In this document: one piece after another, positions 36,640 to 42,946 of the stretch | Layout of the letters: every line of letters begins with the position of its first letter | Numbering within the stretch: position 1 is the first letter of the stretch | From: a virus | IMG/VR virus record: IMGVR_UViG_3300050151_000086 | Span: 1,575 to 65,574 of that record | Length of the DNA: 64,000 bases | Reading direction: 5' to 3' (one strand) | Translations under genes and position numbers: made by a program | Notes under the pieces: model-generated | What the model was told of the DNA's origin: nothing | Databases searched by the model: none | The model's input: the letters and a program-made list of their open reading frames with translations, nothing else

Positions 36640-37110
36640 ATGATCATCTCCACACTCCTCTCCTTCTTCGGTGGCACCGCCTTCCGCATGGTCTGGGGCG
36701 AGATCAGCAGTTGGATCACTGCAAGGCAGGACCACAAGTTCGAGATCGAGCGGATGCAGGCGCAGGAAGCGATCAACGCCGCTGACCACTCCCGCAACCT
36801 TGAAGCCATGAAGGTCCAGGCGGAACTCAAGATCGAGGTCATCACGCAACAGGGCGACGTTGACATCTCCAAGATCGACGCCGAGAGCTTCGGCCGAGGT
36901 GTCGAGGGTCTGTCCAAGCTGTCAGGCTTCAAGCCGGTCGACGCCTGGAAGGCATCAATCCAGCCGGCTCTGGCGACGATGATCATGTTCCTACTGGTCA
37001 AGCACTATGCGAAGGCTGGGTGGGTGATGGATGAGCACGGCTGGGAGCTTGCCGGTGGCGTACTCGGTCTGTTCATCGCTGACCGCATGCTGTTCCGCAG
37101 AGGCAAGTGA
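36640..37110 (+). CDS. Membrane protein, putative holin
   Basis: Hydrophobic N-terminus and two C-terminal hydrophobic segments; directly upstream of endolysin. Confidence 0.55.
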   Translation: MIISTLLSFFGGTAFRMVWGEISSWITARQDHKFEIERMQAQEAINAADHSRNLEAMKVQAELKIEVITQQGDVDISKIDAESFGRGVEGLSKLSGFKPVDAWKASIQPALATMIMFLLVKHYAKAGWVMDEHGWELAGGVLGLFIADRMLFRRGK

Positions 37111-37559
37111 TGAACTGGGGACACGCAACGGAGTTGGTGACCCCAATCATCCACACCTTCGAGGGCTTCTCCTCGAAGCCCTACCTCTGCCCGAGGGGCA
37201 TCCCAACAGTCGGGTTCGGGGCTACGTACTACGCAAATCGGAAAAAGGTCACGCTGTTCGACCCGCCGATCAGCAGGGCTGATGCTGATCAGTTGCTGAG
37301 CACGATGATCAGTCGGGACTTCATGCCGGGAGTTCTGGCAGTGTGCCCCGGCATCGACAACGACTACCGCCTCGCCGCGATCACGGACTTCGCCTTCAAC
37401 CTCGGCCTCGGCCGGTTGAAGACCAGCACGCTCCGCAGGCTGGTCAACGCAGGCGACTGGGACCTCGTCAGGGCAGAGCTGATGAAGTGGGTCAACGCTG
37501 GCGGCAAGGTCTACAAGGGCCTGGTGAAGCGGCGCACGTTGGAGTCCATGCTGATCTGA
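37107..37559 (+). CDS. Endolysin, GH24 phage lysozyme
   Basis: FEG...PYLCPRGIPTVGFG catalytic motif, FAFNLG, WV.AGGKVYKGLVKRR..E. Confidence 0.93.
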   Translation: MMNWGHATELVTPIIHTFEGFSSKPYLCPRGIPTVGFGATYYANRKKVTLFDPPISRADADQLLSTMISRDFMPGVLAVCPGIDNDYRLAAITDFAFNLGLGRLKTSTLRRLVNAGDWDLVRAELMKWVNAGGKVYKGLVKRRTLESMLI

Positions 37560-38786: not shown

Positions 38787-38825
38787 AAAAGAAAAAACCC
38801 GCTAAATCAATGACTTAGCGGGTTT
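38787..38825 (-). terminator. Rho-independent terminator downstream of the tRNA-like core
   Basis: AAACCCGCTAA/TTAGCGGGTTT stem with a U-tract on the minus strand. Confidence 0.8.
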
Positions 38826-38840
38826 GAATGAGTGTTACAG

Positions 38841-38860
38841 TGGTGCCCAGGAGAGGACTC
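38841..38860 (-). other. attP core = 3' end of a tRNA (GAGTCCTCTCCTGGGCACCA), tRNA-Leu-like
   Basis: Ends in CCA; resembles, from memory, the 3' end of betaproteobacterial tRNA-Leu; adjacent to int. Confidence 0.8.
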
Positions 38861-38917: not shown

Positions 38918-39202
38918 TCAGAAAGCCCTCGCCTTAATGACCTCCAGCGCCGCCTTGGCAAGGGCATCACGGATGATGCTGTCGTTGTAGCCACGACTGA
39001 TCACTTTGCCCACGGCCTGATCTGCAGCAGCCTGCACTGACTCCCGGACGCCTCCCTCGGTGATCCGGTTGAACTTCACGCCCAGGACTCGGTCGATCTC
39101 CTTGGTGATGTGCTCAGTCCCCAGGCCCGAGATCACCTTTGCCAGTTGCTGGTCGATGGCACGCCTGAGGTCGTGGTCGTCCAGCTCGATCACGATCTTC
39201 AT
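38918..39202 (-). CDS. Hypothetical protein
   Basis: Start MKIVIELDD at 39202 (ATGA overlap, RBS GGAGG). Confidence 0.7.
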   Translation of the reverse strand: MKIVIELDDHDLRRAIDQQLAKVISGLGTEHITKEIDRVLGVKFNRITEGGVRESVQAAADQAVGKVISRGYNDSIIRDALAKAALEVIKARAF

Positions 39203-39705
39203 GGCTTTGCCTCCAGACTGACCACGACCGGCTGCACCGACAACCTGAACGGCTTGTCGCTGTAGAGGTACTTGCCATTCCACTGGATGAACTGGCCTGC
39301 CGGCGTCCAGAAGAACACGTAGTCGCCGCTAGTGCCGTAGGTGCCCTCGTCGGAGGGTGCAGCAACGTCCTTGGTACAGCCGTACTGGCCGCAGTCGAAC
39401 CTTGCTGATTGCCAAGTCGGTGTGAGGCGCTTCGAGCCGCTGGTGATCTTGCCCTTGACGCCGGTATACATCACGGGTGCGCCCATCTCGTTGAGCAGCA
39501 CCACATAGCCGAGCAGGCCTGGGTTGGCCGTCAGCTCCAGCCGCGCCTTGATGTTGTCGATCTCGGCGTTCTCAGTGAAGTGGATGGAGTTGGCCGCAGC
39601 CTTCGCCTTGTCCGACTGCACTGTCTTTGTCGCCTTCGGGACAGCCTCCTCCTGGCACCCCACCATGAGGATGGCTGCCAGGGTCGAGATGATCAAGCGT
39701 CGCAT
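39199..39705 (-). CDS. Lipoprotein
   Basis: MRRLIISTLAAILMVG-C lipobox; RBS GGAG. Confidence 0.8.
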   Translation of the reverse strand: MRRLIISTLAAILMVGCQEEAVPKATKTVQSDKAKAAANSIHFTENAEIDNIKARLELTANPGLLGYVVLLNEMGAPVMYTGVKGKITSGSKRLTPTWQSARFDCGQYGCTKDVAAPSDEGTYGTSGDYVFFWTPAGQFIQWNGKYLYSDKPFRLSVQPVVVSLEAKP

Positions 39706-40109
39706 TGCGAGGTCTCCAGAGTTTGAGGTACTGCGCTGCCCTTGAAGATCGCCTTGTTGGCTTTCTCCGAATTGGCGTTGAAGCGGGTGGCAAGGTCGCG
39801 GCAAGACTGCTGCATCGCGGCCAGCTCGATACTCAAGCGGGTGCGCTCCTTGGGGTCGGTCTCAGCCTTGGCGATAGCGCGGTGGCCCTTGATCTGACCA
39901 AGGCGTGACTGGTACTGCGCATTCACGTCGTAGAACCACTCGTAGGACGAGATGATGTTGTCCGTCTGGAGGGTCTTGTTCACGACCCGGCCAGGGGCGG
40001 TCAGAGCTGTGCCGACTACCCCGAGCGCGTGACCGGCCAGACCGAGTACGGTGGTCACGGCCAGGATGCCCAGGCCCCACTTCGTGGCGGTGATGAGGTC
40101 GTCTTTCAT
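39693..40109 (-). CDS. Single-pass membrane protein with helical periplasmic domain (LemA-like pattern)
   Basis: N-terminal TM; YEWFYD...RFNANS. Confidence 0.7.
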   Translation of the reverse strand: MKDDLITATKWGLGILAVTTVLGLAGHALGVVGTALTAPGRVVNKTLQTDNIISSYEWFYDVNAQYQSRLGQIKGHRAIAKAETDPKERTRLSIELAAMQQSCRDLATRFNANSEKANKAIFKGSAVPQTLETSQCDA

Positions 40110-40441
40110 GCTACGTCCACCCCCTCGACACCACGCACCATGCGGCGGGCCGTGCGGACCTCTAGGTTGACCAAGGCCTCCTCCATGTGCTGGATGGCCC
40201 GCTTGTTCTCGTCGCAGGCAAACTTGCGGTCGAGCAGGCTGGTACGGTGGATCAAGATCGCCAGCAGGGCTTCGTTGGTCAGGCCGTTGACGCCGTTGGT
40301 CAGCACCGGGCCGTGCTGGAAGTGGATGTACTGGGTCGTTGCGCCGATCAGCACCTGGTACTGGTGGCCCTCGACGTTGACGCCGTGGCTATGGCTGATC
40401 GCGTTGACGGCGACGCCGTTATGGTCTGTGTGGATTCGCAT
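40106..40441 (-). CDS. tad1: Tad1-like anti-defence nucleotide sponge
   Basis: HQY..IHFQHG..G.TNEALLAILIHR..F..DEN..AI.H.EEAL..L..R..RR..RGVEG matches the Tad1 pattern as recalled. Confidence 0.75.
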   Translation of the reverse strand: MRIHTDHNGVAVNAISHSHGVNVEGHQYQVLIGATTQYIHFQHGPVLTNGVNGLTNEALLAILIHRTSLLDRKFACDENKRAIQHMEEALVNLEVRTARRMVRGVEGVDVA

Positions 40442-40450
40442 CTCGTTCTT

Positions 40451-40726
40451 TCAGTGGTTTTTGCGGGGTCTTCCCGCCTTCTTCTCGCGGTGGGAGGCCA
40501 CCCAGTCGCTGATGTCCGAGCGGACCCAGCGTGGGTGGCCTGCCTTGCCATCAGGACCCCTGGGGCGGATCGCCTTGGGGAACCCATCAGCCTTTGCCCA
40601 ATACTCCAAGACCTGGCGGCGGCTGGCCTCAATCAAGGCACCAACGCCGTCAGCGTCAAGGAGTGCATCGGGGCACATGAAGCGGGCCAAGTGGACGGCC
40701 AGCTTCTCGTAGTCAATCTCAGGCAC
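40451..40726 (-). CDS. AlpA/excisionase-like winged HTH protein
   Basis: LLDADGVGALI...DGFPKAIR...PRWVRSDISDW. Confidence 0.8.
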   Translation of the reverse strand: MPEIDYEKLAVHLARFMCPDALLDADGVGALIEASRRQVLEYWAKADGFPKAIRPRGPDGKAGHPRWVRSDISDWVASHREKKAGRPRKNH

Positions 40727-41551
40727 TTAGACGGCCTGGTCGTTCTCGATGAACCAGCGGTACTGGCGCCAGCCAACGAAGTTGGCAGCCCGCGATTCCT
40801 GGCCCATGTTGCGGGCCTGGTGTTCGGTCGGGCTGGCGTGGATCGGAGTGCTGCCCACCAGGAGGTCATGGCGCTCGAACTCCTTGATCAGGCTGGCGTT
40901 GCCGTCGAACGGCTCGTAGCTGACCCGGGCGCAACGGGCCGTGGAGAGCTTCAGGCGGTCCACCAGCAGCAGGCTCTGCTCACTGTCGAGGATGTAGGGG
41001 ATGTGCCACTCACCTGACCGGCGCTCATGGACACAGCCAGCCTTGACGGTGTCTCCCATCGCTTCCAGGATGAGCTGGGCCAGTGTCCAGAACTCCGGCT
41101 GGGCGTCCTCGTGGTTGCGAAGGTGGAAGAAGTTGTCCCACTCCGTGGCCGAGACCAGCACGTCGATGTACTGCCACGGCTCCAGCAGGCGGTTGGCAAC
41201 CTGCTTGTGCAGGCCCAACTTCATCATGGCCCAGGCGAAGCCACACATGACTTTGCCGGCACCACGCCACAGGGCGCCGGCTGCGGCACGCTTCCAGCCC
41301 ACCAGCTCAGCACGCGCCTGCATGCCTGCCTGGTTGACGCCCCAGTGCTCGGGTCCAGCCGGGTCGTTCCAGACCTGGGTCAGCACCTTCTTTACCGGCT
41401 TGGCACGGCTGGAGCCTGCGTTGCGGCTGAAGACGCGGTGCGTCATGAACTCCGAGTGGATCGCACGCCAGTAGCGCAGATGTAGGGTCCACAAGATCAC
41501 ACCTGACTTCGGGCAGGCCGAGGCCAGGATCACTTTCACTTTCGATGTCAC
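40727..41551 (-). CDS. thyX: Flavin-dependent thymidylate synthase
   Basis: IHSEFMTHRVFSRNAGSSRA, HKQVANRLLEP, HASPTEH; GTG start with RBS GGAG. Confidence 0.85.
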   Translation of the reverse strand: MTSKVKVILASACPKSGVILWTLHLRYWRAIHSEFMTHRVFSRNAGSSRAKPVKKVLTQVWNDPAGPEHWGVNQAGMQARAELVGWKRAAAGALWRGAGKVMCGFAWAMMKLGLHKQVANRLLEPWQYIDVLVSATEWDNFFHLRNHEDAQPEFWTLAQLILEAMGDTVKAGCVHERRSGEWHIPYILDSEQSLLLVDRLKLSTARCARVSYEPFDGNASLIKEFERHDLLVGSTPIHASPTEHQARNMGQESRAANFVGWRQYRWFIENDQAV

Positions 41552-41567
41552 GTTCTCATTCTCCGTT

Positions 41568-42083
41568 TTAGTCAAACTCGATCATTGAGACACCGCACTC
41601 CAGGAACAGAGCGCGGCTGCGTTCAAACTCCTCCCTCCAGCGGGGGGCGAATTCGCCGCTGGGCTTCGGCGTGTAGACAGACTTGATCCCAGCCTGAACG
41701 ATCAACTTCGCGCAGGCCATGCACGGAATATGGGTGCAGACCAGAGTGCTGCCTTCAAGCGGGGTGCCAACCCGGGCAGCATTCACAATCGCATTGGCTT
41801 CCGCGTGAGCTGTCCAGTACAGCTTCTCCTCGCGGGTCTTCGAGCGCTGGTCCTCATCAGCCTTCGAGCCACGGGGTGCCCCATTCCAGCCGCTGGAGCG
41901 AACCTCGAAGCTCGGGCCGAGGATCACAGCACCAACCTTGGTGCTGGCGTCCTTGGACATCGCTGCGAAGGCCAGCGCCACCGGCAGGAATCGCCTGTAC
42001 TTCCCGGCCATGCGCTTCCGGTGGAAGTTCTCGACCTGAAGCAACTGTGCGGGGTTCATGTAGACCTGAGCGTTGTCCATCAC
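41568..42083 (-). CDS. dCMP deaminase
   Basis: KVGAVI, GWNGAPRG, HAEANA, PCMAC. Confidence 0.92.
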   Translation of the reverse strand: MMDNAQVYMNPAQLLQVENFHRKRMAGKYRRFLPVALAFAAMSKDASTKVGAVILGPSFEVRSSGWNGAPRGSKADEDQRSKTREEKLYWTAHAEANAIVNAARVGTPLEGSTLVCTHIPCMACAKLIVQAGIKSVYTPKPSGEFAPRWREEFERSRALFLECGVSMIEFD

Positions 42084-42946
42084 TCCTCCGACGCCGGCAT
42101 CTCCGGCAGCTTGCTGAGGATGTCGTCGATGAACGCCTTGGTTGCGGCGTCCATCTTTGCGTAGGCCGGGTCAGCCTGGACAAACTTCACGCAAGAGAAG
42201 AGGTCGGGGCCGGAGGCCTTGACTGCCGCACGCCACGTCGGAGCCACGTGCTTGGCAGTCGCCTTGTCCTTGCCGGCCTTCTTCGCCGTGGTCACGGCCT
42301 CCTGGAGGACTGCAACAGCCTTGGTGCCATGCTTCTTCACGGCGCTGATGGCGACACCGGCCGAGACCTTGCCGGTGCGGACCATGTCGCGGATCGTCTT
42401 CGACGCGCCCTGCAGCAGCAGCAAGTCGTTGACATAGCCAGACGTGACACCGATCTTGGCGCCGATCTTCTTCTCGTCCCAGCCGTAGCCGATCAGGCGC
42501 TTGATGACGGTGCCGACCTCGAACGGGGTCAGCGGGCGCCCCGAGTTCGACGTGATCAAGTCGACGGTCATGTCTTCCATCGACGTGCCACGGGGCTTCG
42601 TGATCACCGGAATCGTCAGGACTTCAACACCCTTCTCACGCAGGCGGCGCACGGCTTCATGGCGGCTGTGGCCGGCAGTCACGGCAATACGGCTGACACC
42701 GTCGACTTCAATGACGTAGCCCGACATGGGCTTATCGCGGTCGTAGCCGTTGCCTTCGATCAACTCCATCAGGCCGATGATGTGGGCCTCGTAGGCTTCA
42801 TCATGCTCACGGACGTTGTAGCCCGGGATGATGTAGAGCTGCTCGAACGGCACCTGCCAGAGGTCAGAGGACTTGACGCCCTTCATTGCCTCCTTGACGT
42901 TGCCAGCGGTGAGTTCGATGAGGTTGGTTTCGACTTTGGTTGCCAT
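42080..42946 (-). CDS. ParB/Srx-domain DNA-binding protein
   Basis: GYNVRE, VTAGHSRHEA, NSGRPLTPFE, HTH IGAKIGVTSGYV. Confidence 0.8.
   Translation of the reverse strand: MATKVETNLIELTAGNVKEAMKGVKSSDLWQVPFEQLYIIPGYNVREHDEAYEAHIIGLMELIEGNGYDRDKPMSGYVIEVDGVSRIAVTAGHSRHEAVRRLREKGVEVLTIPVITKPRGTSMEDMTVDLITSNSGRPLTPFEVGTVIKRLIGYGWDEKKIGAKIGVTSGYVNDLLLLQGASKTIRDMVRTGKVSAGVAISAVKKHGTKAVAVLQEAVTTAKKAGKDKATAKHVAPTWRAAVKASGPDLFSCVKFVQADPAYAKMDAATKAFIDDILSKLPEMPASEE

Follow-up and report, generated by a model that had tools for sequence, protein, structure and literature searches.

A Tad1-family protein of a proteobacterial-type phage with a conserved gcADPR pocket and no canonical cyclic trinucleotide site

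The virus record IMGVR_UViG_3300050151_000086 (81,622 bp, rated 100% complete by CheckV) contains, within the 64 kb stretch analysed here as the window, a gene for a 111-amino-acid protein that belongs securely to the Tad1 family. The identification as a Tad1 homologue, proposed in an earlier note on this DNA, is borne out by sequence, by fold and by the conserved ligand-contacting Asn and Arg residues. With a probability of about 0.7, the alignments suggest that the protein is a Tad1 sponge with a single kind of pocket, possibly dimeric, which would bind glycocyclic ADP-ribose (gcADPR) or cyclic dinucleotides and would not bind cyclic trinucleotides. The gene and the parts of its product that carry the argument are as follows.

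40106..40441, minus strand: tad1-like gene, 111 codons plus stop (product P0001, 111 amino acids)
40319..40438, minus strand: N-terminal antiparallel β-sheet, residues 2–41 (strands 2–5, 10–18, 21–32 and 35–41), assigned by DSSP on the model
40133..40276, minus strand: C-terminal two-helix hairpin, residues 56–103, the Acb2/Tad1 hairpin that bears both ligand sites (helices in the model; PF24729)
40205..40207, minus strand: codon of N79 (CbTad1 N92) of the gcADPR/cyclic dinucleotide pocket, from alignment to 8kbh/7uav
40142..40156, minus strand: codons R96 to R100 (CbTad1 R109 and R113), the pocket arginines, from the alignment
40190..40213, minus strand: codons D77 to Q84, at the positions of CbTad1 R90/T97 (CmTad1 R88/T95), with Asp/Gln instead of Arg/Thr and R81 one helical turn past D77
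40157..40171, minus strand: codons V91 to V95, at the positions of CmTad1 M102/W103/K106, here V/N/V

The gene is real and conserved, with similarity to other proteins far beyond chance. At E ≤ 0.001 it has 374 relatives in a 90%-cluster database, the best 120 of the 374 being 65–81% identical, and an exhaustive search for relatives gives 2826 representative clusters. It is also matched at 2e-31 by phrog_2428, a PHROG with no named function. The open reading frame (ORF) was bounded exactly in the earlier note; it lies on the minus strand, the plus-strand frame being interrupted by a stop. The residue pattern quoted there is exact in its C-terminal part (F74, E78-N79, A82, H85, E87-E88-A89-L90, R96, R100, R103, V105 and G107), while the residues of its N-terminal part (H26 and Y28; I39, F41, Q42 and G44; L59, L60, I62 and R66) are all present but were written with spacing slips of one residue.

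Searching all PDB chains with phmmer returns CmTad1 (8KBB/C/D) at E 1e-11, gp184 of phage phiKZ (8Y6V_I) at E 4.4e-6 and four CbTad1 chain sequences (7UAV, 8KBE, 8KBG and 8KBH) at E ~0.25. Similarly, tblastn against 50,697 phage records finds the annotated Tad1 of Bacillus phage SBSphiJ7 (2e-11, 48% identity). An AlphaFold2 model built from a 116-row alignment (A1) has a mean predicted local distance difference test score (pLDDT) of 95.4 and a predicted template modelling score (pTM) of 0.82. In this model four β-strands are followed by two helices (residues 56–73 and 77–103), and Y28, F41 and Q42 are near-invariant among relatives. The comparison with Tad1 structures that the earlier note had asked for gives a clear match: in a Foldseek search of the PDB ranks 1–20 are all CmTad1 or CbTad1 chains (E 1.6e-7 to 4e-4, template modelling score for the query, TMq, 0.71–0.83), and the first match past Tad1, at rank 21, has E 0.39. 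Pfam, NCBIfam and PADLOC scans left the protein without a usable name. Its precomputed annotation lists PF24729.3 (Acb2_Tad1_hairpin), whereas the older PF24729.2 does not match it even at E 10 and matches the SBSphiJ7 Tad1 at 2.9e-8; the Pfam miss is probably a version effect.

Tad1 is a D3 hexamer arranged as a trimer of dimers and contains two kinds of site (Li et al., bioRxiv 10.1101/2023.11.15.567273). Its dimer interfaces hold six pockets for 1''-3' or 1''-2' gcADPR or cyclic dinucleotides; in CbTad1 the residues F82, N92, R109 and R113 bind gcADPR and 2',3'-cGAMP, and double mutants abolish binding (Li et al., 10.1101/2023.11.15.567273). Mapping residues onto CbTad1 and CmTad1 by HMMER alignments and a MAFFT alignment places these four at L69, N79, R96 and R100 of the window protein, three of them identical and the fourth still hydrophobic. 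In alignment A1 the three polar residues are almost fixed (N79 in 115/116 rows, R96 in 113/116 and R100 in 112/116), and the N-R-R triad is present in 118 of 119 close relatives. The earlier expectation that conserved C-terminal arginines serve as ligand contacts therefore agrees with R96 and R100, which together with N79 are near-invariant in relatives.

The pocket of CbTad1 is formed between two chains, and a two-copy complex prediction of the window protein gives a comparable arrangement. The prediction has an ipSAE of 0.85, whereas the highest-scoring of three controls has 0.03. When the tool was calibrated, 20 of 30 proteins known as homo-pairs from solved structures attained this mark, compared with 1 of 23 known as single chains. 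All contacts (100%) are shared by the three runs, and the partner pLDDT is at least 89. The low-error contacts (85-85', 82-89', 79-92', 79-93' and 78-96') describe an antiparallel packing of the second helices. In the predicted dimer N79 of one chain is set beside R96 and R100 of the other, as the CbTad1 pocket needs. Tad1 oligomers are already in the PDB, and the score may partly be memory, so that the model shows likeness and not binding.

The second kind of site differs. In Tad1 two pockets on the three-fold axis bind cyclic tri-AMP (cA3) or cAAG via CbTad1 R90 and T97 (CmTad1 R88 and T95), which hold the phosphates, and the single substitutions R90A or T97A markedly reduce cA3 binding (Li et al., 10.1101/2023.11.15.567273). 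These R90/T97-type residues also help to build the hexamer, together with CmTad1 Q98, E99, M102, W103 and K106, and a CmTad1 mutant with five alanines in this interface is a dimer that has lost cA3 binding (Li et al., 10.1101/2023.11.15.567273). In the window protein the Arg/Thr pair is replaced by Asp77 and Gln84, and the equivalents of the five CmTad1 interface residues are E87, E88, V91, N92 and V95 in the alignment. Neither an R/K plus T/S pair nor the hexamer Trp is found in any of the 119 close relatives, of which 91 carry Asp and 16 carry Glu at position 77. The site is thus absent in its canonical form; the protein probably does not bind cA3 or cAAG, and a dimer-only state is possible. 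The suggestion in the earlier note that it would take up several CBASS nucleotides needs narrowing, since with Asp/Gln in place of the site Arg/Thr the cyclic trinucleotides are probably excluded.

Substitutions in the trinucleotide site have been reported in 6% of Tad1 homologues, most of which keep both sites (Li et al., 10.1101/2023.11.15.567273). Among the 150 best family representatives (P0121–P0270) the proportion is far above the 6% site substitution reported from NCBI nr, with 132 having neither the pair nor the Trp. The two features go together: the Trp is present in 11 of the 13 representatives with an Arg/Thr-type pair versus 5 of the 137 without one (Fisher 2e-11, ignoring relatedness). 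In a tree of poor resolution, rows with the canonical RT/MW residues adjoin the SBSphiJ7 outgroup, and the window protein falls in a 14-row clade (Shimodaira–Hasegawa-like approximate likelihood ratio support, SH-aLRT, 97) that has no Arg or Lys at position 77 (13 rows D/E, one Ala). Homologues from Acinetobacter (47% identity) and Piscirickettsiaceae (56%) retain C-R-E-N...A-I-T...M-W in the MAFFT alignment. The canonical residues are therefore found both near the outgroup and in these homologues, and on the sequence evidence the loss of the trinucleotide pair and the Trp is derived in the branch of the window protein. What goes beyond known Tad1 biology is only this joint absence of the trinucleotide site and the hexamer Trp in the branch, the gcADPR pocket being invariant.

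Comparison with the characterized proteins SBSphiJ7 Tad1, CmTad1 (8KBB-D) and CbTad1 (7UAV/7UAW, 8SMD and 8KBE-H) shows a fold shared along the entire protein (TMq up to 0.83) and common motifs (FQxGP...NG...E...R...C.EN..A...R(T)..R..RGVEG), with the same pocket Asn and two Arg. All are likewise small accessory genes borne by phages, and the predicted dimer described above is of the same type. The window protein differs in having 111 residues with a shorter N-terminus, versus 142, and in its level of identity, which is 27–28% to the solved Tad1 structures and 48% to SBSphiJ7 Tad1 over the C-terminal 63%. It also differs in carrying Asp/Gln for Arg/Thr, Val-Asn-Val for Met-Trp-Lys and Leu for the pocket Phe. 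A group of Tad1 proteins from Acinetobacter prophages is closer in several respects (proteobacterial host, 113 residues, 45–47% identity over the full length, same pocket residues). This group keeps the canonical C-R-E-N...A-I-T and M-W, and so should retain the trinucleotide site, whereas the window protein is without them. Acb2 has a hairpin that is grouped with that of Tad1 as PF24729, and it forms a hexameric sponge that binds dinucleotides and trinucleotides at different sites. However, Acb2 structures are absent from the significant Foldseek matches, and the N-terminal β-sheet domain and motif set of the window protein are those of Tad1.

The earlier note had treated a Tad1 in a phage of proteobacterial type as out of the ordinary, and this does not hold. 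At its first description Tad1 was reported from phages of Proteobacteria, Firmicutes and Cyanobacteria, and the ten homologues tested, one of them from A. baumannii, all inhibited Thoeris (Leavitt et al. 2022). The A. baumannii homologue is not necessarily a member of the Acinetobacter prophage group aligned here. Homologues are carried by 195 of the phage records searched with tblastn, including 64 of Pseudomonas, 9 of Aeromonas and 9 of Vibrio, with others of Shewanella, Rhizobium, Agrobacterium and Burkholderia; phiKZ gp184 has already been named Tad1. A Tad1 homologue is also carried by 65 viral contigs. Tad1 is a mobile accessory gene of phages and prophages, and the present gene conforms to this.

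The description of the phage itself as proteobacterial in type is well founded. The nearest genomic homologues of the protein are from Polaromonas sp. P2-4 (75%), an uncultured betaproteobacterium (73%) and a Ferribacterium limneticum metagenome-assembled genome (MAG) in which the gene is prophage-borne (69%), and the GC content of ~60% is in keeping with proteobacterial hosts. A 20-nucleotide attP core (38841–38860) ends in CCA and exactly matches tRNA 3' ends of Alpha-, Beta- and Gammaproteobacteria (at least 120 genomes). In none of the sampled genomes does the match extend any further 5' (0 nucleotides), and a 29-nucleotide core has no exact match, so that the core indicates the phylum Pseudomonadota only. 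Megablast of the region against phage records returned only a 70-nucleotide match within ThyX to Brevundimonas jumbo phages and no close cultured relative.

TIR signalling exists in such hosts. Of 201 genomes sampled from the Polaromonas order, 30 encode ThsB_TIR (PF08937) proteins, as does the very Ferribacterium MAG whose prophage carries the 69% homologue. Two Burkholderiales loci contain clusters of PADLOC ThsB matches, one in 4 of 5 scanned ORFs (L216, G196:C3:60500-71500) and the other in 2 of 5 (L217, G008:C3:223500-234500). These clusters may be TIR signalling systems other than type I.

Taken together, these data are consistent with the following mechanism. A small cytosolic protein would be made early from the leftward operon and, as modelled, would form a homodimer via its antiparallel second helices, in which N79 adjoins R96' and R100'. 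Each dimer would trap two molecules of the TIR-made gcADPR signal of Thoeris, and possibly a CBASS cyclic dinucleotide. With the signal sequestered, a ThsA-type host effector would stay off and the infected cell would not abort. Because the site Arg/Thr is Asp77/Gln84, cyclic trinucleotides would not be bound, perhaps no hexamer would form, and no cover against trinucleotide-type CBASS would be expected. Several points weigh against this reading. Leu69 replaces the aromatic pocket residue CbTad1 F82, and weaker or altered binding could result. Arg81, one helical turn past Asp77, could rebuild the three-fold site. None of the five ORFs scanned in each of the two ThsB clusters has a PADLOC match to ThsA. 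Finally, in the sponge panel of the Sorek laboratory 19 of the 84 homologues assayed were inactive against all seven systems.

Two of these points lead to other readings of the same fold. If Arg81 compensates, the protein would be a canonical two-site Tad1, hexameric and binding cyclic trinucleotides via shifted residues (R81 and K80). R81 is at i+4 from D77 and on the same helix face, 'RAI' is kept in most close relatives, and most Tad1 homologues keep both sites (Li et al., 10.1101/2023.11.15.567273). However, the position of the phosphate-holding Arg is charge-reversed, 107 of the 119 close relatives having D or E there, and Arg is found at position 81 in only 16 of 116 rows of the wider set. 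The Thr and Met-Trp are lost as well, and the CmTad1 alanine set that gives dimers and abolishes cA3 binding includes Met-Trp; we regard retention of both sites as improbable. If instead the change at position 69 alters the pocket, the protein could be a Tad1-fold sponge retuned to another signal, for example the product of a non-type-I TIR system of Betaproteobacteria. Sponge families shift specificity readily, 19 members of the 84-protein panel hit none of the seven systems, and ThsB-like clusters with no ThsA match among the neighbours scanned do occur in the presumed host order. Against this, the three polar residues that contact the ADP-ribose or AMP moiety are invariant, and position 69 is Leu in the window protein but F, Y or H in 105 of the 119 close relatives. 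In addition, the Sorek-laboratory survey, which drew 1,587 non-redundant Tad1 homologues from IMG/VR, reported no inhibited systems other than CBASS and type I Thoeris, such inhibition being widespread in the 20 proteins assayed. Such retuning is unlikely, and the single-pocket gcADPR/cyclic dinucleotide sponge remains the preferred interpretation.

The match to phiKZ gp184 raises a different possibility, that of a virion or capsid-associated structural protein. gp184 (8Y6V chain I) is a protein of the inner capsid vertex, and some homologues in Bacillus phages are annotated as structural. It has a Tad1-like C-terminal domain, occurs in a proteobacterial phage as the window protein does, and is regarded as anti-Thoeris; it has been named Tad1 and is treated as an injected anti-Thoeris factor, which itself speaks against a purely structural role. 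It is, however, a protein of 230 residues in which the Tad1-like part covers only residues 155–226 (33–34% identity). The packaged protein is held in the capsid by its N-terminus, and its C-terminal part is released and injected. The window protein has no N-terminal capsid-anchoring extension cleaved by a head protease, its Tad1 domain starting at residue 1–2, and its gene lies in the early leftward arm beside xis/int, distant from the head genes. A structural role is thus very improbable.

Many relatives in the family are longer, at 160–562 residues, and their Tad1 domain is mostly C-terminal (for example residues 287–399 of 400 and 364–436 of 437); P0121, P0166, P0220 and P0244 are among them. 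In two long relatives the domain is N-terminal (residues 1–112 of 264 and 79–191 of 562). By analogy with phiKZ gp184, which the long proteins with a C-terminal Tad1 domain resemble, virion-packaged Tad1 may be widespread.

The tad1 gene is followed on the same strand by three genes and a terminator-like hairpin.

39693..40109, minus strand: gene A, 138 amino acids, N-terminal transmembrane helix and helical domain; its start overlaps the tad1 stop (ATGA)
39199..39705, minus strand: gene B, 168-amino-acid lipoprotein with lipobox LMVGC; ATG at 39705, 13-nucleotide overlap with the end of gene A
38918..39202, minus strand: gene C, 94 amino acids; ATG at 39202, ATGA overlap with the gene B stop
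38795..38825, minus strand: hairpin of 14 pairs followed by a T-run, resembling an intrinsic terminator, which ends the tad1-A-B-C unit ahead of attP and the integrase gene

The four genes are translationally coupled by these ATGA (40109–40106 between tad1 and gene A), 13-nucleotide and ATGA overlaps. The earlier note had seen in them a possible counter-defence cluster headed by tad1, with the neighbours at 38918–40109 as candidate anti-defence factors. Pfam, PHROG and NCBIfam scans of genes A, B and C found no known family. The Atlas neighbours of gene A are hypothetical proteins of viruses, one structural row being weakly LemA-like (TM 0.56); those of gene B, which encodes a folded domain of 168 residues, are viral 'lipoprotein family' clusters, and those of gene C are viral hypothetical or lipoprotein clusters. 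When ten flanking window proteins were searched by tblastn, genes A, B and C were found at none of 73 loci bearing a Tad1 relative. Tad1 homologues at 75–76% identity lie in unrelated contexts, one in a prophage with HicAB and terminase as its neighbours, another in the tail-fibre region of a 266 kb contig. Genes A and B recur as a pair, at 56–63% identity overall and 59–63% for gene B, in two other viral contigs (L207:24-935 and L208:3950-5202), with no Tad1, endolysin or integrase near the pair in either. In L208 a 91-residue ORF splits A and B, and the setting is of early type, with a DnaQ-like exonuclease upstream and an RtcB-like ORF downstream.

Given the lack of shared synteny in the 73 loci and the varied settings of the homologues, the supposed cluster is a local juxtaposition of mobile accessory modules. 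Nothing marks A or B as a cytosolic counter-defence factor, and co-transcription alone is insufficient to make the neighbours anti-defence candidates. The A/B pair is most likely a mobile envelope module with a role in superinfection exclusion or another surface function. A spanin pair is disfavoured by the position in an early operon, by L207 and L208 being without a match to the window holin or endolysin, by the early-type genes in L208 and by the folded domain of B. The holin-like and endolysin genes of the window (36640–37559) directly adjoin the integrase gene on the opposite strand, with no spanin genes behind the endolysin.

Just upstream of tad1 a 91-residue ORF (40451–40726, minus strand) has weak matches to excisionase/AlpA-like PHROGs (phrog_4996, 1e-5; phrog_66, 4e-4), and the four-gene tad1 unit separates this ORF from the integrase. 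Further upstream on the same strand (40727–42946, minus strand) are genes for a ThyX-type thymidylate synthase (phrog_85, 1e-68), a dCMP deaminase (PF00383, 2e-20) and a ParB-like protein. The ThyX/dCMP deaminase block of nucleotide metabolism could point to synthesis of modified or dU/dT-biased DNA.

It is conceivable, if rather doubtful, that the betaproteobacterial clade and most of the ~2,800 related clusters form a distinct branch of Tad1 with a single pocket and a dimer-only state. In such a branch the three-fold surface would have been rebuilt (Asp77, Arg81, Gln84 and no Trp), and cover against trinucleotide CBASS would have been given up, or a new signal from the ThsA-less TIR systems common in such hosts would be bound. 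If this were true, the published 6% lacking the trinucleotide site would be an artefact of having sampled isolate genomes. With the family assignment, a gene that has no name in PHROGs or the older Pfam can safely be given a functional label, as can several hundred relatives from metagenomes. The assignment also indicates that this temperate phage encounters TIR/Thoeris-type signalling in a proteobacterial host of freshwater type. The joint loss of the trinucleotide pair and the Trp would represent a natural experiment, which fits the published mutant data in suggesting that the hexamer forms in order to create the trinucleotide site. Proteins of this kind may serve as a minimal form of Tad1 in studies of specificity, or as reagents selective for gcADPR.

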